64,000 nt of DNA, from the NCBI RefSeq assembly GCF_058153355.1, contig NZ_CM177019.1; one strand, given 5' to 3'. The position numbers and the translations under genes are program-made. Of the stretch, positions 376 to 45,368 are shown piece by piece. Positions within the stretch are counted from its first letter, which is position 1. Every line of letters starts with the position of its first letter. The notes below the pieces were generated by a model. It was not told where the DNA came from, searched no databases, and worked only from the letters and a program-made list of their open reading frames with translations.

Positions 376-410
376 AAATGCAAACAACTTCCATCAAAAA
401 AGTGACAAAG
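376..410. repeat. Copy A of an imperfect ~35-bp direct repeat (aaatgcaaacaacttccatcaaaaaagtgacaaag), in the mppA upstream region
   Basis: Aligns with 4372-4408 (aaatacaaacaacttccggcaaaaaagtgatacaag) with about 30 of 35 positions identical, same orientation. Confidence 0.6.
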
Positions 411-654
411 GAAGCATCAAATGTTTTAAGTATCAATATATCAAATCAGATTTAGTGTAAATAATAGTCTCCAAAATGCGGTAAAGCACATAGAACTCCG
501 AACACTACGTTCGGGCTTCGCACGTTCAAACCCGTTTTCGGTATCATAATCAGCATCTGTCGCCATTGTACGAAGAATAAAAAATAACCAAAACGTTGAA
601 AGGAACTGAGAATACGTTAAGAGAAGAATTAAATTAATGTATCAGCAAGTAGTG

Positions 655-1554
655 CTAAACAGCACCTTTATACTTCAGCCTATCTATAAATAATGAGAAT
701 GCCGAGCCAGCATGTCGACGGTGTGGATAGTACAGGTGATAACCGGGTAAATCTGGTGTGAATTTATCCAAAACACGTATCAGTTTTTTTTCTTTAATAG
801 CCCGCTCAACCTGATCATAAGGTAGATACGCCAATCCATGCCCATCAATTGCAGCATCAATGATCAGGTCTATCGTATTCAGTAAAAGCTGACCTTCCAT
901 GCGAACACGAACTTCACGTCCACCGCGTATTAATCTCCAGCGATTTGCTGTACCCGATGTGGGAAGATACAAATTAATTGCCTGATGATCTATTAATTGT
1001 GACACTGACGTTGGAGCACTTCGACGAGAAAAATAATCCGGTGAGCCAACAATAGCCATTGGTATATCTGGCCCGATTCGAATGGCGATCATATCTTTAT
1101 CCATCTCCCCACCCAGACGGACGCCTGCATCAAAACGTTCAGAAACGACATCGGTCAAACCATAATCAATGGTAAGCTGGATATCAATTTCAGGATGCGA
1201 TTTCAGGAATGTGCGCATAGCTGGTAACAATATCGTTTTTGCTGCATGTTCTACAGTAGTAATACGTATTGTCCCGGATGGGCGGTTCTGCAGATCGCTC
1301 AGGGATGTCAGGGCAGAATCTATGTCATGCAACATAGGGCCAAGAACAGACAAAAGATGCTCGCCCGCTTCAGTGGGTACAACGCTGCGCGTGGTTCGCG
1401 TCAGAAGCCGCAATCCCAATCGTTCTTCTATACGGCGCACTATCTGGCTTAAAGCTGACTGCGCCATGCTCAGGCGGGCTGCTGCGCGAGTGAAGCTACG
1501 CTCCTCTGCAACGACGACAAACGCCATCAGATCAGCGATTTCTTCACGCTTCAT
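655..1554 (-). CDS. ycjZ: LysR-family transcriptional regulator
   Basis: 299-aa ORF with N-terminal winged-HTH (MKREEIADLMAFVVVAEERSFTRAAARLSMAQSALSQ) and LysR substrate-binding-type C-terminus; divergent from the hydrolase genes as in E. coli ycjZ/ycjY. Confidence 0.9.
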   Translation of the reverse strand: MKREEIADLMAFVVVAEERSFTRAAARLSMAQSALSQIVRRIEERLGLRLLTRTTRSVVPTEAGEHLLSVLGPMLHDIDSALTSLSDLQNRPSGTIRITTVEHAAKTILLPAMRTFLKSHPEIDIQLTIDYGLTDVVSERFDAGVRLGGEMDKDMIAIRIGPDIPMAIVGSPDYFSRRSAPTSVSQLIDHQAINLYLPTSGTANRWRLIRGGREVRVRMEGQLLLNTIDLIIDAAIDGHGLAYLPYDQVERAIKEKKLIRVLDKFTPDLPGYHLYYPHRRHAGSAFSLFIDRLKYKGAV

Positions 1555-1679
1555 TCAGTATCTCCATACAATCTATTAATCATTTAAATGATAGGTCTAA
1601 TCATAATTTAGGGTCTAATCAACTTAATGATCAATATCTATAGTGATATCACCAACCGTCAAAACGAACCGACAACTCC

Positions 1680-2612
1680 ATGAGGAACGGAATGATGAAT
1701 AATAAAGTCAGCTTCACTAACAGCAATAATCCAACCATCTCTTTGTCTGCAGTGATCTATTTCCCTCCAAAATTTGATGAAACCCGTCAGTATCCGGCAA
1801 TTGTGGTATCTCACCCAGGTGGGGGCGTTAAAGAGCAAACGGCCGGAACCTATGCCGAAAAACTGGCGGAAAAGGGATTTGTCACTATTGCTTATGACGC
1901 ATCTTATCAAGGTGAAAGCGGCGGCGAGCCGCGTCAGTTAGAAAACCCATACATTCGTACTGAAGACGTCAGTGCCGTGATTGATTACCTGACAACGCTT
2001 TCTTATGTCGACAATACCCGAATTGGTGCGATGGGAATTTGTGCCGGTGCAGGATATACAGCCAATGCTGCAATTCAGGATCGCCGCATCAAGGCCATCG
2101 CTACCGTTAGTGCGGTCAATATTGGTTCGATGTTCCGTAATGGTTGGGAAAACAATGTGAAATCTATTGATGCCCTACCATACGTTGACGCGGGTTCAAA
2201 CGCCCGAACCAGCGATATTAGCAGCGGAGAATACGCCACTATGCCACTGGCACCAATGAAGGAGTCCGATGCGCCGAACGAAGAACTGCGTCAGGCCTGG
2301 GAGTATTACCACACCCCTCGCGCGCAGTATCCAACAGCACCGGGTTACGCTACTTTGCGCAGCCTTAACCAGATTATTACCTATGATGCTTACCATATGG
2401 CGGAAGTGTACCTGACTCAGCCGATACAGATTGTGGCGGGCAGCCAGGCAGGGAGCAAATGGATGAGTGACGACCTGTACGATCGAGCATCAAGCCAGGA
2501 TAAACGCTATCACATTGTTGAAGGCGCAAACCATATGGATCTTTATGACGGCAAAGTCTATGTGGCTGAATCAATTTCAGTATTAGCTCCGTTCTTTGAG
2601 GAAACTCTGTAA
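1680..2612 (+). CDS. Alpha/beta-hydrolase (dienelactone-hydrolase-like), ycjY-family, copy 1
   Basis: 310-aa ORF; paralogous to the next gene (shared FPPKFDE..QYPAI..AYDAS.QGESGGEPR..RIGxxGxCxGxGY blocks). True start may be one of the ATGs at 1692-1697 (AGGAA upstream). Stop TAA overlaps the next ATG (taATG at 2610-2614). Confidence 0.8.
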   Translation: MRNGMMNNKVSFTNSNNPTISLSAVIYFPPKFDETRQYPAIVVSHPGGGVKEQTAGTYAEKLAEKGFVTIAYDASYQGESGGEPRQLENPYIRTEDVSAVIDYLTTLSYVDNTRIGAMGICAGAGYTANAAIQDRRIKAIATVSAVNIGSMFRNGWENNVKSIDALPYVDAGSNARTSDISSGEYATMPLAPMKESDAPNEELRQAWEYYHTPRAQYPTAPGYATLRSLNQIITYDAYHMAEVYLTQPIQIVAGSQAGSKWMSDDLYDRASSQDKRYHIVEGANHMDLYDGKVYVAESISVLAPFFEETL

Positions 2613-3551
2613 TGAAACATATTCAAATCCGTAATAGTGATATGGCCTGGCATATTGCTGCCAATATTCAGTTTCCACCAAATTTTGATGAGTCAAAACA
2701 GTATCCGGCGATTATCAGCGTCCATCCTTTTGGCAGTTGTAAGGAGCAGACGTCTGGCAATATCTATGGCAAGGCATTGGCTGAAAAAGGCTATGTCGTT
2801 CTCGCTTATGACGCCAGTTTCCAGGGAGAATCTGGTGGGGAGCCTCGTTGGATAGAAGATCCGACACAGCGCGTAGAGGATATTAGCCGTGTTATCGATT
2901 ATGCAGTAACTCTGCCATATGTTGATGCTGAACGCATTGGCGTGCTGGGTGTGTGTGTGGGGGGGGGGGGGTGGCTATGCCATTAATGCCGCGCTGACAG
3001 AAAAACGAATTAAAGCTGTAGTGAGTATTACGGGTGTTAATATCGGGCGTCTTTTTCGGGAAGGTTTCAGCAATTACGATCCGATTGGCGCATTGAATGC
3101 AATGGCGTCGCAACGAACCAAAGAGGCTCGTGGTGGAGAATTACAGATCAACGAATTACTTCCCGCCAGCCTGGATGCAGCAAAAGCCCATGGACTGACC
3201 GAACGCGATGTTTATGAAGCAACTGACTACTATAAAACACCACGCGGGCAACAACCGGGAGGTGCGACAAAAATGTTGTTCTCACATGCACAGAAAACGC
3301 TGGCCTGGGATGCCTTCGCATTTACTGAAGTGTTACTGACTCAGCCGGTGATGGTAGTAGTTGGTGAAAAAGTCGGTGCCTTCGGTGCTTATCGTGATGG
3401 ACTGGAAGTCTATGGCCGGGCGATGGTTTCGCAGGATCGTCAGTTAGTTTCGTTACCCGATTTCTCACATTATGAACTGTATGACAAACCGGAAGCAGTT
3501 CAGGAGGCGCTGGAAAAAGTTATTCCTTTTTTCAACACCCATCTGGGATAA
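2612..3551 (+). pseudogene. Alpha/beta-hydrolase, ycjY-family, copy 2, interrupted by a +1 frameshift in a 13-G homopolymer (2959-2971)
   Basis: ORF track splits it into 2612..2986 (ends ...GVCVGGGGWLCH*) and 2919..3551 (reads ...WVCVWGGGGGYAINAAL...). Removing one G gives a continuous ~312-aa frame, GVCVGGGGGYAINAALTEKRIK, collinear with copy 1. Confidence 0.75.
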
Positions 3552-3556
3552 GTTTC

Positions 3557-4207
3557 ATGAGAAATATTATGAAAAAAGTACTCATTCTTGGTGCTGGCGG
3601 TCAGATAGCCCGCCATGTGATTAATCAACTGGCAGATAAACAAACCATTAAACAAACTTTATTTGCTCGTCAGCCAGCAAAAATACACAAACCCTATCCA
3701 ACTAATAGCCAGATTATTATGGGGGATGTACTGAATCATGCAGCACTGAAGCAGGCCATGCAGGGACAGGATATTGTGTATGCCAACCTTACGGGGGAAG
3801 ATTTAGATATTCAGGCAAATTCAGTGATCGCTGCGATGAAAGCCTGTGATGTTAAACGTCTGATCTTTGTTCTTTCCCTCGGCATTTATGATGAAGTTCC
3901 AGGAAAATTTGGCGAATGGAATAATGCAGTTATTGGTGAGCCCCTAAAACCATTCCGCAGGGCTGCGGATGCAATTGAGGCTTCTGGACTGGAATATACA
4001 ATTCTTCGCCCTGCCTGGCTGACTGATGAAGATATTATTGATTATGAGCTTACCTCACGCAATGAACCATTCAAAGGTACGATCGTATCACGTAAGAGTG
4101 TCGCAGCATTAATCACAGATATCATCGATAAACCTGAGAAACACATTGGTGAGAATATAGGCATCAATCAACCCGGGACTGATGGTGATAAGCCCTTCTT
4201 CATGTAA
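3557..4207 (+). CDS. NAD(P)-binding Rossmann-fold protein (NmrA/SDR-like); probably the intact form of the locus annotated ymjC in K-12
   Basis: 216-aa ORF with N-terminal KKVLILGAGGQIARHV glycine-rich dinucleotide-binding motif; position between ycjY and mpaA. Confidence 0.7.
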   Translation: MRNIMKKVLILGAGGQIARHVINQLADKQTIKQTLFARQPAKIHKPYPTNSQIIMGDVLNHAALKQAMQGQDIVYANLTGEDLDIQANSVIAAMKACDVKRLIFVLSLGIYDEVPGKFGEWNNAVIGEPLKPFRRAADAIEASGLEYTILRPAWLTDEDIIDYELTSRNEPFKGTIVSRKSVAALITDIIDKPEKHIGENIGINQPGTDGDKPFFM

Positions 4208-4225
4208 ATCAATTATATAGCTACC

Positions 4226-4257
4226 ATCGTACTGTACTATGTGCAGTACGATTTATT
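4226..4257 (+). terminator. Hairpin (atcgtactg / cagtacgat) followed by ttatt
   Basis: 9-bp inverted repeat with 9-nt loop starting 19 bp after the stop at 4207, followed by a T-rich run. Confidence 0.55.
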
Positions 4258-4371
4258 AAACTTATTAAGGTGAACTGATCAATCAGATGCGATTAACATG
4301 TGTAGAACCAGTAAGAATAAAATACGCCATGTATATAACATTACGACAATTCTAATATCTGCACATCAATG

Positions 4372-4408
4372 AAAATACAAACAACTTCCGGCAAAAAAGT
4401 GATACAAG
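4372..4408. repeat. Copy B of the imperfect ~35-bp direct repeat, upstream of mpaA
   Basis: See 376-410. Confidence 0.6.
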
Positions 4409-4497
4409 ATCGATAACATAGCGTTGAAGAAAAGGATTTGATAATCCGCAAAATTTGCACAACACTGCCTGTAATACTTCCTGAACCAGAGACGATT

Positions 4498-6929: not shown

Positions 6930-8984
6930 GTGATGACTATTATGGATGATAAACAAATTACGGTCTGGCTTAAACACAATTGCTGTTCAACGGACATTCC
7001 TGCCATTGCCGAGGCACTAACGAACCATGCAGAATGGCTTTTAGAGCTAGCGCCAGATCCTATTGAACAAGGTAGTTCATGTTTACCGCCGACAGCTGCA
7101 GCCGGTATTTTTCTTGGCGCAGCGGCGATGGTTCACTGCGGCGAGGCTAGTGGTGCAGAAACCTGGCTCGAAGCAGCCATTACTGATTACCATTTCTTTA
7201 ATCCAAATGGATATAGTTCATGGAGAGGCAGTACGCCTGTTTTTACAGCATTATCGCGTTACCCGGCATTAAGAATGGTGTTATTTAACGCCGCTTGCGC
7301 AATGGAAGACTGGAATAAAGCATCCGCTGTTCTTGAATCGCTTTTCCATGCCGGCGATGTCCCGGAAGATAACCCTGTCGCCCCAAATTTTACCCCTTAT
7401 GCGCTGAAAGCGTTTATCGCGGATTACCACCCGTTAGGGCCTGCTTATTATGATGAAACCTGGTTGCTGGCAAAACAAGCGTGGTTAATTAATGCGGGCG
7501 TTCTGGATGAGCGAACCTGTAATACCTGGAAGCAATATACCCGCCACTTGCGCCATTTGATCCACAATACACAGTTTGCCGATGCGCTCTCTTTTGTACG
7601 CAGTAAAAAAGAACCGTTAAATCATATCCATACCTACTCAGACTTTTATCTGTATGCGATTGGTTTATTTTCTTATACTAGTCAGCTAAATGAAGCGCTG
7701 ACCTGGATAAAACAGTTAATCCACAACAATGATGGTCATTTCTGTGATCTTTTCGTTTCAACTGGCAAAGAGCGCCGAATAAAGCCTGAACTTAGTACCT
7801 TGCTGAATAATCTCTTGCACAGCGCAGAGTTTCAGGCGTTGCAGGATAAATATCTCACCGTCGGACATGATGTTGTGTATTCTGGTCCCTTCATGTCACT
7901 TTATGAAAAGGTTCTTGGCGGTAAGTCCCGAAAGCGCTGCGCGATTAGTCGAAAATTAATCTCGCCCGGCGAAGCGGTTTATGAATATCGTCAGCTGGAT
8001 AGTGTGGAATATATTGCAGCAAAAGCGGCCTTTCAGACATCTGAGCTAAATAATATCGCCCACCGGCATCATAATGATAGTTATCAGTGGCATGAATTTG
8101 CTGCCCAATGGCCTCGTCGGGGTTCACTTTCTCACCCAGATATTGCCCGTTATTTGTTTGAGCGCCAGGAAGGAAAATGCTTTGATGCCGCAGAGTTTAT
8201 ACAACTGATTGCGGAACCGTTTGTCTTTCCGATGCGTTTCATATGGGTTGCCGGGTTGTCCTTTGAATTACATCAGTATCCGGATGCCTATTTCGTAAAT
8301 GACAATATGGCGGGTGAATTTGTTAATCTCTGCTGGATGGCTATGAAATGCGGACATGCTGGAGACATTTTCAAACAACTGGCCCACGAGCCGCATGACG
8401 TTGCTGACCCTATTTACGCCATGCTCGCCACGTTTGACCGCGCTGATTGCCGTAGCGCCGCCGCCGCGCACTTTGGACAACCGGAACTACCGGAAATAAT
8501 GGCACTGGCTTTCAGTTCGAGGTTATCGCTGGACAGCGTCCTTACCATCGCTGAGTTTGGTAAAAATCAGCCGCGATTTTCACATGCGCTAGCAACGGCC
8601 CTCCTGCGTTACAACCTGCACATCTACTCAAACTATATGCCGCAGGTTAACTGGTTCCTTCAGGGGCTGGAACACTATGCTTTGGCAAAAGGCGGTCAAC
8701 TTTTAAATTTCTTTGTGCATATTCCAGAACAAATTCCCGTTCTGGCGACCATGCTGGAACATGGCGTATTAGTGCGTGGGATCGGTGAAGGTGCCTACGA
8801 TGGTTATGATAATTCAGCAAATTCATTTCATCATGCCGCCGTGATGCACTGCCTCACGCACGCGCCGGAAAAAGTCCGCTACTGGATGGAAACACCCTGG
8901 ATTCAGAACTATTTAGTGAATGCGCCGCTGCGTCAAACGGCGCGCCATGTGGAAGCCTGGCATAAAAAGTTTGGCATCAAATGA
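6930..8984 (+). CDS. Orphan 684-aa ORF of unknown function; predicted cytoplasmic, aromatic- and His-rich, no motif I can assign
   Basis: Uninterrupted 2055-nt ORF; GGAG at 6922-6925 just upstream of ATGs at 6930/6933/6942; no signal peptide or TM segment evident; no canonical Walker A (only a near-miss LGGKSRK); sits between tpx and tyrR where K-12 has only a short spacer. Confidence 0.75.
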   Translation: MMTIMDDKQITVWLKHNCCSTDIPAIAEALTNHAEWLLELAPDPIEQGSSCLPPTAAAGIFLGAAAMVHCGEASGAETWLEAAITDYHFFNPNGYSSWRGSTPVFTALSRYPALRMVLFNAACAMEDWNKASAVLESLFHAGDVPEDNPVAPNFTPYALKAFIADYHPLGPAYYDETWLLAKQAWLINAGVLDERTCNTWKQYTRHLRHLIHNTQFADALSFVRSKKEPLNHIHTYSDFYLYAIGLFSYTSQLNEALTWIKQLIHNNDGHFCDLFVSTGKERRIKPELSTLLNNLLHSAEFQALQDKYLTVGHDVVYSGPFMSLYEKVLGGKSRKRCAISRKLISPGEAVYEYRQLDSVEYIAAKAAFQTSELNNIAHRHHNDSYQWHEFAAQWPRRGSLSHPDIARYLFERQEGKCFDAAEFIQLIAEPFVFPMRFIWVAGLSFELHQYPDAYFVNDNMAGEFVNLCWMAMKCGHAGDIFKQLAHEPHDVADPIYAMLATFDRADCRSAAAAHFGQPELPEIMALAFSSRLSLDSVLTIAEFGKNQPRFSHALATALLRYNLHIYSNYMPQVNWFLQGLEHYALAKGGQLLNFFVHIPEQIPVLATMLEHGVLVRGIGEGAYDGYDNSANSFHHAAVMHCLTHAPEKVRYWMETPWIQNYLVNAPLRQTARHVEAWHKKFGIK

Positions 8985-41680: not shown

Positions 41681-42642
41681 TTATCTTCACCTTACGCCGC
41701 ATTTTGTTATTGATTGTCACCTTGTTCCTGCTGACGTTCGTTGGCTTTAGCTTGAGCTATTTCACCCCACATGCGCCGTTACAAGGCGCTTCACTGTGGA
41801 ATGCCTGGGTGTTCTGGTTTAACGGCCTGATCCATTGGGATTTTGGTGTTTCCAGCATTAACGGTCAGCCGATTGCCGAACAGTTAAAAGAGGTCTTCCC
41901 GGCGACGATGGAACTGTGCATCCTCGCCTTCGGTTTTGCGCTGATTGTTGGCATCCCCGTAGGAATGATTGCCGGGATTACGCGCCATAAGTGGCAGGAT
42001 AACTTGATCAACGCCATCGCCTTACTGGGCTTTTCAATCCCGGTGTTCTGGCTGGCGCTTCTGTTGACGCTGTTTTGTTCACTCACGCTAGGTTGGTTGC
42101 CCGTTTCAGGGCGTTTCGATCTGCTCTACGAAGTGAAACCGATTACCGGTTTTGCGTTGATTGATGCCTGGCTTTCGGACTCACCGTGGCGGGATGAAAT
42201 GATCATTAGCGCAATCCGTCATATGGTATTGCCCGTGATCACCCTGTCGGTTGCGCCAACAACTGAAGTGATCCGACTAATGCGTATCAGCACTATCGAA
42301 GTGTATGACCAGAATTATGTAAAAGCGGCGGCGACCCGCGGTTTGTCACGCTTTACTATTTTGCGTCGCCACGTTCTGCATAACGCGTTACCTCCGGTTA
42401 TTCCTCGCCTGGGCTTACAATTTTCCACCATGCTGACGCTGGCAATGATCACCGAAATGGTCTTTAGCTGGCCGGGTTTAGGGCGCTGGTTAATTAACGC
42501 CATCCGCCAGCAAGATTACGCGGCCATTTCCGCCGGAGTGATGGTGTGTGGCTCACTGGTCATTATTGTTAACGTGATTTCTGATATTTTGGGTGCCATG
42601 GCTAACCCTCTGAAACATAAGGAATGGTATGCCTTACGATAG
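41677..42642 (+). CDS. sapB: Sap ABC transporter permease
   Basis: 321-aa hydrophobic ORF; 4-bp overlap with sapA. Confidence 0.9.
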
Positions 42643-43519
42643 CGTATACAGCGAAAAGCGCCCGCCGGGCACGCTGCGTACCGCCTGGCGCAAATTTTAT
42701 AGTGATGCCTCTGCGATGGTCGGTCTGTACGGCTGCGCGGGACTGGCTGTACTGTGTATTTTTGGCGGCTGGTTTGCGCCTTACGGAATCGATCAGCAAT
42801 TTCTCGGCTATCAATTATTGCCGCCTTCATGGTCACGCTATGGCGAAGTTTCTTTCTTCCTGGGGACTGACGACCTCGGACGCGATGTTTTAAGTCGTTT
42901 ACTGAGTGGAGCTGCACCAACCGTGGGGGGGGCATTTGTGGTGACGCTTGCAGCGACGATCTGTGGCCTGGTACTTGGCACCTTTGCCGGGTCGACGCAC
43001 GGTCTACGCTCAGCGGTGCTTAACCATATTCTGGATACCTTACTGGCGATCCCTTCCCTACTGCTGGCAATTATCGTTGTAGCGTTTGCCGGACCGAGTT
43101 TGTCGCACGCCATGTTTGCCGTCTGGCTGGCGCTGCTGCCTCGTATGGTACGTTCGATTTACAGCATGGTGCATGACGAACTGGAAAAAGAGTACGTTAT
43201 CGCCGCCCGTCTGGATGGCGCATCAACGCTGAATATTCTCTGGTTTGCTGTGATGCCAAACATCACCGCCGGGCTGGTCACCGAGATCACCCGCGCACTG
43301 TCGATGGCAATTCTCGATATCGCCGCGCTGGGCTTTCTCGATCTCGGCGCACAACTCCCCTCGCCTGAATGGGGAGCGATGCTCGGTGATGCGCTGGAAC
43401 TGATTTATGTCGCCCCGTGGACTGTCATGCTGCCAGGTGCGGCAATTATGATTAGCGTGCTGTTGGTTAACCTCCTTGGCGACGGTGTTCGTCGTGCAAT
43501 TATTGCGGGGGAGGAATAA
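42629..43519 (+). CDS. sapC: Sap ABC transporter permease
   Basis: 296-aa hydrophobic ORF. Confidence 0.9.
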
Positions 43520-44512: not shown

Positions 44513-45319
44513 ATGATCGAAACGCTGCTTGAAGTGCGTAATTTAAGTAAAACGTTCCGCTACCGGACCGGCTGGTTTCGTCGTCAGACCGTAGAAGCGG
44601 TAAAACCCTTGAGCTTTACGCTACGTGAAGGCCAGACACTGGCGATCATTGGCGAGAATGGTTCTGGTAAATCCACGCTGGCAAAAATGCTGGCGGGAAT
44701 GATAGAACCTACCAGCGGCGAGTTATTGATTGACGATCATCCGCTGCATTTTGGCGATTATTCCTTCCGCAGTCAGCGTATTCGCATGATTTTTCAGGAT
44801 CCTTCGACCTCGTTAAATCCCCGTCAACGTATCTCGCAAATTCTGGATTTTCCACTGCGTCTGAACACCGATCTGGAACCTGAACAGCGTCGCAAACAGA
44901 TTATTGAAACGATGCGTATGGTTGGGCTGCTACCGGATCACGTCAGTTACTATCCGCATATGTTGGCACCCGGGCAAAAACAGCGTCTGGGGCTGGCGCG
45001 CGCGCTGATATTGCGCCCAAAAGTCATTATTGCCGATGAAGCCCTCGCCTCACTGGATATGTCGATGCGTTCGCAGTTGATTAATCTGATGCTGGAATTA
45101 CAGGAAAAACAGGGCATTTCGTATATTTATGTTACCCAGCATATCGGAATGATGAAGCACATTAGCGACCAGGTGCTGGTGATGCATCAGGGAGAGGTTG
45201 TCGAGCGAGGTAGTACTGCGGATGTGCTCGCCTCTCCGCTGCACGACCTCACTAAACGACTGATTGCCGGTCATTTTGGCGAGGCATTGACGGCGGATGC
45301 GTGGCGTAAGGACCGTTAG
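44513..45319 (+). CDS. sapF: Sap ABC transporter ATP-binding protein
   Basis: 268-aa ORF with Walker A GENGSGKST. Confidence 0.9.
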   Translation: MIETLLEVRNLSKTFRYRTGWFRRQTVEAVKPLSFTLREGQTLAIIGENGSGKSTLAKMLAGMIEPTSGELLIDDHPLHFGDYSFRSQRIRMIFQDPSTSLNPRQRISQILDFPLRLNTDLEPEQRRKQIIETMRMVGLLPDHVSYYPHMLAPGQKQRLGLARALILRPKVIIADEALASLDMSMRSQLINLMLELQEKQGISYIYVTQHIGMMKHISDQVLVMHQGEVVERGSTADVLASPLHDLTKRLIAGHFGEALTADAWRKDR

Positions 45320-45325
45320 TGTTTT

Positions 45326-45368
45326 GCACCTCATCCTGACAGGCCCCCCCCCTCAGGATGAGGTGTTC
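45326..45368. terminator. Bidirectional hairpin between the convergent sapF and MFS genes, with a C10 homopolymer in the loop
   Basis: cacctcatcctga - caggcccccccccc - tcaggatgaggtg; 13-bp perfect stem. Confidence 0.6.

Follow-up and report, generated by a model that had tools for sequence, protein, structure and literature searches.

A probable horizontally spread two-hydrolase cassette that includes pgrR, eroding in Escherichia coli, with a hypervariable (TG)n(G)n tract over the active-site codons of hydB

The first 6.8 kb of a 64,000-nucleotide stretch of contig NZ_CM177019.1 (NCBI RefSeq assembly GCF_058153355.1), the whole of which we refer to as the window, contain the 5' end of mppA, the regulator gene pgrR, two alpha/beta-hydrolase genes that we call hydA and hydB, a gene for an NAD(P)-binding protein of the SDR family, mpaA, ycjG and tpx. 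Here we examine the two hydrolase genes, the cassette to which they belong and a simple-sequence tract that disrupts hydB in the window. The features on which the analysis turns are as follows, with positions counted from the first letter of the window:

655 to 1554, minus strand: pgrR (ycjZ), a LysR-type regulator divergent from the hydrolase genes, named PgrR in RefSeq
1692 to 2612, plus strand: hydA, which is ycjY, intact, 306 amino acids, an alpha/beta-hydrolase with the nucleophile elbow GICAG
2612 to 3551, plus strand: hydB, a ycjY paralogue and a pseudogene in the window, with frame 0 at 2612-2986 and frame +1 at 2919-3551
2950 to 2971, plus strand: compound microsatellite (TG)5G13, over the codons for the catalytic Cys and the Gly-rich elbow (G-x-C-x-G)
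2984 to 2986, plus strand: premature stop codon, at which the frame-0 open reading frame (ORF) 2612-2986 ends after GVCVGGGGWLCH
3569 to 4207, plus strand: SDR gene, the intact and full-length form of ymjC, 212 amino acids, with a Pfam NAD_binding_10 match (E 4e-54) and the RefSeq name 'SDR family oxidoreductase'

PgrR has the Pfam domains HTH_1 and LysR_substrate. The two hydrolase genes overlap by one nucleotide (TAATG), the TAA of hydA occupying 2610-2612 and the ATG of hydB 2612-2614, exactly as the first-pass annotation of this stretch had read. The same annotation had placed the starts of hydA and of the SDR gene at 1680 and 3557, and these two positions do not hold: the RefSeq starts map to 1692 and 3569, and for hydA the RefSeq start together with the first residue of Protein Data Bank (PDB) entry 5XB6 indicates that 1692 (MMNNK...) is most likely the start codon used.

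That the two adjacent genes encode paralogous alpha/beta-hydrolases, as had been proposed from shared sequence blocks, is borne out by pairwise alignment. HydA and the intact HydB of strain N3 are 41% identical over 299 amino acids (BLASTP, E 2e-71), and the blocks FPPxFDE, QYPAI, AYDASxQGxSGGEPR, RIGxxGxCxGxGY, VNIG and LTQP are all found in the alignment; at the DNA level, a repeat search recovers two shared blocks of hydA and hydB with 70-76% identity. Both proteins score above the cut-offs of the Pfam families Peptidase_S15, DLH, Hydrolase_4 and Abhydrolase_1, and both have a Cys in the nucleophile elbow G-x-C-x-G, which reads GICAG in HydA and GVCGG in intact HydB. Intact hydB alleles, as found in strains N3, AR_452 and O157 Z1835, encode 310 amino acids. 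Across 10 HydB orthologues C115 and G116-G119 are invariant, as is H284, a conserved C-terminal His that aligns with the NHMDLYD block of HydA; no acid residue of a catalytic triad could be assigned from sequence in either protein.

The closest structural match to both proteins is PDB 5XB6, the 'uncharacterized protein YcjY' of E. coli K-12 (b1327), which HydA matches with E 8e-200 and HydB with 4e-68. K-12 YcjY and HydA are orthologues of 306 amino acids that differ at 11 residues and have in common the GICAGAGY elbow and the place beside pgrR; they differ in context, in that YcjY of K-12 stands alone and is followed by ymjD and ymjC, whereas the window still has hydB and the SDR gene beside it. 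A second full-length homologue of both copies is PA2218 of Pseudomonas aeruginosa (PDB 2HDW, hypothetical protein; E 2e-40 and 8e-47), which has a GICGWGG elbow and a C-terminal SHVDLYD block but is 367 amino acids long with an N-terminal extension and is itself uncharacterised, thus offering no functional lead. The literature searched contained neither a function for YcjY or a description of 5XB6 nor a paper on the 2HDW structure.

Dienelactone hydrolase (Pfam PF01738) has the fold and the elbow Cys in common with the two copies, which score 38 and 35 bits against a DLH cut-off of 21; the match spans only the N-terminal half of HydA and HydB, and there are no chlorocatechol-pathway genes near the pair. 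The best NCBIfam neighbour of both copies is NF047920, the family of UilS, a DLH-type alpha/beta-hydrolase described as a urea-induced acyl-homoserine lactonase of Serratia marcescens (PMC11633161). Membership in this family was considered and rejected, as the copies score 88.1 and 76.6 bits against a curated cut-off of 400, and a lactonase activity for HydA or HydB is on this sequence likeness only a lead.

We next consider how widely the pair is conserved. At 65-93% protein identity it is present in Serratia, Klebsiella, Rhizobiales, Sphingobium, Vibrio and other taxa, in most cases accompanied by the divergent LysR gene and in some by the SDR gene. Orthologues of hydB are found at 85-87% identity in Serratia and Klebsiella variicola and at ~80% in Afipia, Mesorhizobium, Agrobacterium, Sphingobium, Brevundimonas and one Labilithrix genome. 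The order of a divergent LysR gene, hydA, hydB and a gene for a 211-212-amino-acid NAD_binding_10 protein recurs in Serratia, K. variicola and Afipia, and the Sphingobium cassette keeps this order without the SDR gene. Identities to the E. coli proteins in these other genera are 70-88% for the LysR protein, 80-93% for HydA, 80-86% for HydB and 67-84% for the SDR. The suggestion that LysR regulator, two hydrolases and NAD(P)-binding protein form a small module is supported. When one genome per species was scanned, 54 loci were obtained, from enterics, Rhizobiales, Acetobacteraceae, Lysobacter, Pseudoalteromonas, Vibrio and others. hydA adjoins hydB in 50 of these 54 loci, the remaining four being one cut contig, two partial genes and one outlier at 37%. 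Enteric pairs have a 1-nucleotide stop/start overlap. A LysR gene is present in 35 of the 54 loci and an SDR of the E. coli type in seven.

In Pseudoalteromonas, Vibrio, Alteromonas and relatives, no LysR or SDR of the E. coli type was detected beside hydA-hydB. Their places in the marine Gammaproteobacteria tend to be taken by an AraC-type regulator and a flavodoxin-like protein, which may point to a redox step associated with the hydrolase pair. Over all 54 loci, an AraC-type regulator occurs in 15 and a flavodoxin-like protein of 213 amino acids in 10, with cluster representatives from the marine group. The cassette has a recombinase gene (resolvase or integrase) as its neighbour in two hosts only, K. 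variicola and Sphingobium. Separately, one Logan assembly encodes a 489-amino-acid protein that matches HydB at 99% identity over 96% of its length before running on into an NAD_binding_10 domain; its sequence suggests that read-through has joined hydB to the SDR gene downstream.

The intergenic region shared by pgrR and hydA contains one further conserved element:

1579 to 1592, no strand assigned: candidate PgrR operator, the perfect palindrome ATCATTTAAATGAT (ATCA-N6-TGAT), between pgrR and hydA

ATCA-N6-TGAT is present at the equivalent place in Serratia, Citrobacter and Klebsiella, and takes the form ATCACTCCAGTGAT in several Alphaproteobacteria. It agrees with the T-N11-A type of palindrome expected of a LysR binding site, and we infer that PgrR would bind it. 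For K-12, binding to the ycjY/ycjZ spacer by systematic evolution of ligands by exponential enrichment (SELEX) has been reported, and the ycjY-ymjDC-mpaA operon is given there as a PgrR target (PMC5934670).

Because adjacency of the hydrolase genes, the LysR gene and the palindrome are all conserved across Proteobacteria, the comparison indicates that the core unit is regulator plus hydA plus hydB, and that the two hydrolases, though long diverged, have remained linked. Our favoured reading is that the cassette spread horizontally between bacteria as a small regulated unit. This bears directly on the proposal, made in the first-pass annotation, that the two genes are a tandem duplicate. Adjacency on the same strand, equal length and a common fold are what a recent duplication of ycjY within E. 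coli would produce; we nonetheless regard such an origin as refuted and have discarded it, as identity between the copies is 41%, against 80-93% between each copy and its orthologues in other proteobacterial classes, and the two lie side by side in nearly all of the species loci. The genes behave instead as an old pair moving as a unit.

To place the cassette in its genomic setting, genomes with an empty site were aligned to the window, which puts the cassette at ~406-4372 (~4.0 kb) between mppA and mpaA. It is bounded by a pair of repeats:

376 to 412, no strand assigned: left copy of a flanking 37-nucleotide imperfect direct repeat, 84% identical to 4373-4409 at a spacing of 3997
4373 to 4409, no strand assigned: right copy of the same repeat, paired with 376-412

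Some E. coli genomes have mppA directly adjacent to mpaA, with all four cassette genes missing and a single copy of the 37-nucleotide repeat left. The idea that the flanking repeats are hybrid attachment (att) sites was dropped: the right-hand copy in K-12 equals the empty-site sequence, and therefore the pattern cannot separate insertion from deletion. No transposase or integrase lies between 406 and 4372, where the only convincing genes are pgrR, hydA, hydB and the SDR gene. At the left end of the cassette there is also a 75-nucleotide fragment of queH (epoxyqueuosine reductase) at ~482-556 on the minus strand, annotated by RefSeq as a pseudogene at the equivalent site in O157:H7 Z885; it may have been carried in together with the cassette.

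The distribution of these genes was then surveyed in 5,426 complete E. coli genomes. Of these, 5,242 have at least part of the locus, and only 1,280 (24%; both are exact counts) have both hydrolases with a full SDR gene, which argues against an ordinary core locus. Proportions for the reduced states were taken from a spread sample of 40 rows: hydB is deleted in ~30% of genomes, and hydB together with the tail of the SDR gene in ~42%, the latter being the state found in both K-12 and strain B. Loss of hydB takes out codons 19-307 without changing the frame (~2667-3540 of the window) and leaves the 21-codon ymjD; the second deletion additionally takes 3708-4372, and the N-terminus of the SDR stays as ymjC. 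MG1655 accordingly has a single ycjY, as had been stated in the first-pass annotation, with ymjD and ymjC behind it; ymjD joins the 18 opening codons of hydB to its 3 closing ones, and ymjC corresponds to the N-terminal portion of the SDR gene. The cassette is thus lost stepwise and piecemeal in E. coli, with the two-gene form the minority state. The earlier view that a full form is eroded in the laboratory strain is right as regards the K-12 remnants and falls short in one respect, namely that the window, with hydB as a pseudogene, likewise lacks the full form. Synonymous divergence within E. coli is lower in the cassette genes than in the flanking mpaA, which fits a later arrival of the cassette than of its flanks.

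The larger of the two deletions may also have changed how the neighbouring gene is controlled. Directly after the SDR stop codon lies a further element:

4226 to 4262, plus strand: candidate intrinsic terminator, with a 12-bp stem and a 3-nucleotide loop followed by UUUAUU

RNA fold prediction gives this hairpin -16.8 kcal/mol and a z-score of -3.4, with none of 200 shuffled sequences as stable. It lies within the segment deleted in K-12-type genomes, and since that deletion removes the predicted terminator, the cassette operon may have been fused to mpaA. The K-12 ycjY-ymjDC-mpaA operon, and with it PgrR control of mpaA, may therefore be a by-product of the deletion, a proposal that is inference only.

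We turn now to the frameshift in hydB. The first-pass annotation had noted that the second copy is frameshifted and had missed the cause, a hypervariable (TG)n(G)n tract that sits on the active-site codons. In the window the tract reads CTG GG(TG)5 G13 TGG, which is 7 nucleotides longer, by one TG unit and five G, than the intact form (TG)4G8, which encodes G-V-C-G-G-G-G-Y. The hydB frame breaks directly after the nucleophile-elbow motif, and the remainder of the gene reads in frame +1. G13 is the only homopolymer of at least 10 bases in the 64-kb window. The next-longest G/C homopolymers there are a G8 at 42925-42932, inside an intact ORF of 296 amino acids at 42629-43519 (sapC by position), and a C9 at 45344-45352, just downstream of an ORF at 44513-45319 (sapF by position). 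Reading the tract straight from the sequence of other genomes gave the following alleles:

N3, O157 Z1835 and DSM 103246: (TG)4G8, hydB intact
O157 Z885 and O157 Sakai: (TG)4G9, hydB frameshifted
O157 PV15-279: (TG)4G10, hydB frameshifted
O157 F3113: (TG)5G10, hydB frameshifted
O55:H7 CB9615: (TG)4G11, in frame with one extra Gly
O55:H7 DEC5B: (TG)3G15, hydB frameshifted
E105: loss of 2 nucleotides, hydB frameshifted

Tract offsets of +1, +2, +4, +5, +7 and -2 nucleotides coincide with annotated frameshifts, and offsets of +0 and +3 with annotated intact genes. Seven O157:H7 and O55:H7 genomes that differ from one another by 0-1 single-nucleotide polymorphisms (SNPs) over 2.5 kb of hydA-hydB-SDR have six tract alleles between them. 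Lengths of 295 and 296 nucleotides are each present in O55:H7 as well as in O157:H7, and length changes therefore recur. In the collection as a whole, (TG)4G9 is found in exactly 222 genomes, G10 in ~85, G8 in ~64 and longer tracts in 10, with no G7 tract in the sampled rows. A metagenome scan for the tract returned only three contigs (two with (TG)4G8 and one low-coverage variant), too few to inform. The pseudogene ECs_1907 of O157:H7 Sakai, annotated as 'dienelactone hydrolase', is the same gene as hydB and is frameshifted in the same repeat; its (TG)4G9 is a +1 change, whereas the (TG)5G13 of the window is a +7 change on another haplotype, 26 SNPs away over 2.5 kb. The Sakai annotation gives the pseudogene status and omits the variability of the tract.

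At a homopolymer of this length, a sequencing or assembly error that hides a truly intact hydB is an obvious alternative, in that G runs this long are miscounted by most platforms and the exact window allele occurs in no RefSeq complete genome, the longest found elsewhere being 299 nucleotides against 301 in the window. We think it improbable that this accounts for the frameshift. A gain of 7 nucleotides that includes an extra TG unit is untypical of a one-base miscount, the length changes among genomes likewise comprise whole TG units and multi-base steps, and frameshifts at this site are common and reproducible, the Sakai reference having G9 and 222 genomes sharing the same 92-mer. Furthermore, twelve near-clonal cattle isolates agree on one tract length, and ORFs elsewhere across the window are long and uninterrupted, so that a general homopolymer error is not apparent.

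How the tract arose is suggested by its relatives. In ~870 genomes the same codons read GGA GTG TGT GGG GGT GGT GGC, an interrupted form in which the G run is only 5 and the length is the same throughout, and in orthologues from other genera the four glycines are spelled by a mixture of GGC and GGT codons with no G run. Because the interrupted alleles are of one length and other genera use mixed codons, we conclude that a synonymous GGT-to-GGG change fused the interrupted G5 and G2 runs into G8, with instability following. The result is an outlier for E. coli, since in a survey of 1,346 Escherichia genomes homopolymer runs in conserved genes were only 6-8 bases; the hydB locus is not mentioned in that survey (PMC8928963).

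Instability of this kind invites comparison with the poly-G/C contingency genes of Campylobacter, Neisseria and Haemophilus, in which reading is likewise governed by the length of an in-frame tract of 8-15 G that varies among near-identical isolates. Read this way, the tract would be a switch: reversible slippage would turn HydB ON and OFF, mixed populations would be adaptive in enterohaemorrhagic E. coli (EHEC) O157:H7 and O55:H7, and polarity may in addition alter expression of the downstream SDR gene. The many alleles among near-identical strains, the recurrence of length changes in both serotypes and the persistence of in-frame G8 alleles in O157:H7, for example in Z1835, are all as such a switch would have it. 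Still, we hold it to be unlikely, and the tract is most likely a mutational hotspot that speeds gene loss. We favour the hotspot because out-of-frame alleles dominate, G9 and G10 making up ~80% of uninterrupted alleles and G8 ~16%; because the product is a hydrolase without a surface-location signal, unlike the products of typical contingency genes; because in-frame expansions such as G11 add residues within the nucleophile elbow and may not be ON; and because the remaining E. coli delete hydB outright, leaving most of the species without the gene. The host, too, sets hydB apart from the contingency genes of those three genera, as do a product that belongs neither to the surface nor to restriction-modification and the predominance of OFF alleles.

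Taken together, we consider it probable that the locus is a horizontally spread two-hydrolase cassette that is eroding in E. coli, and that the tract is a mutational hotspot hastening the loss of hydB under relaxed selection. In its full form the cassette consists of PgrR, divergent from an operon of two anciently diverged alpha/beta-hydrolases of the Cys type followed by a small NAD(P)-binding SDR. HydA and HydB would act jointly, either within one hetero-oligomer or by catalysing successive steps, and their substrate would be a small ester, lactone or thioester sensed by PgrR; the SDR would handle the product or a precursor. Slipped-strand expansion from (TG)4G8 to (TG)5G13 would have knocked out HydB in the window by shifting the frame just after the catalytic Cys, and tract length since the G8 fusion would have changed far faster than the surrounding DNA gained point mutations.

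Several observations weigh against parts of this account or limit how far it can be taken. The ycjY ORF is intact in every hydB-less genome inspected, and HydA may for this reason work alone; the basis for joint action of HydA and HydB is their co-occurrence and gene overlap alone. Pairwise ratios of nonsynonymous to synonymous substitution rates (dN/dS) within E. coli are 0.11-0.87 for ycjY, 0.00-0.04 for mpaA and mostly ~0.1 for pgrR, a pattern that fits relaxed constraint on ycjY, and these values come from 3-16 substitutions per comparison without a significance test. The hairpin at 4226-4262 was not called by a simple terminator scan and is predicted from the fold only. Many O157 assemblies derive from long reads that miscount homopolymers, and part of the +/-1 spread in tract length is possibly technical; the exact G13 length in the window is likewise that of the assembly alone. 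We accordingly place much more confidence in the instability of the tract in the population than in the particular allele of the window.

Public annotation already shows the gene pair, the pseudogene of Sakai and the K-12 remnants. In the literature on ycjY, ymjC/ymjD and O157 phase variation we found no description of the hydA-hydB pairing across Proteobacteria, of the insertion between mppA and mpaA or of the hypervariable repeat. YcjY, a protein with a solved structure, perhaps belongs to a conserved pair of which K-12 has deleted the other member; if so, study of the K-12 protein by itself could miss the function, and the better system would be a strain or species that has the full cassette. 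For PgrR, a regulator named for peptidoglycan recycling, the comparison indicates that it travels across Proteobacteria with the hydrolase pair and a conserved operator. The repeat, in turn, illustrates how one synonymous change appears able to create a hypermutable site in E. coli, and it calls for caution in genome comparisons of O157:H7 and in feature sets for machine learning, where the status of hydB flips with tract length. Should the tract prove to be a switch after all, E. coli would have in it a simple-sequence contingency locus, rare in this species, that acts on cytoplasmic metabolism instead of a surface structure, and one half of a conserved two-hydrolase enzyme would be reversibly ON or OFF in the EHEC O157:H7/O55:H7 lineage and in relatives such as the source of the window.

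Lastly, downstream of the cassette, an ORF of 684 amino acids occupies 6930-8984 on the plus strand, in the interval from tpx to tyrR, which is empty in most E. coli. Neither Pfam nor PADLOC gives a match to it. The three closest carriers that were inspected are without the entire pgrR-ycjY cassette. At a coverage of at least 80%, the ORF is found in only 30 of the 5,426 complete E. coli genomes. Its annotation there is 'hypothetical protein', and it falls into at least two sequence types (~98% and ~94% identity).

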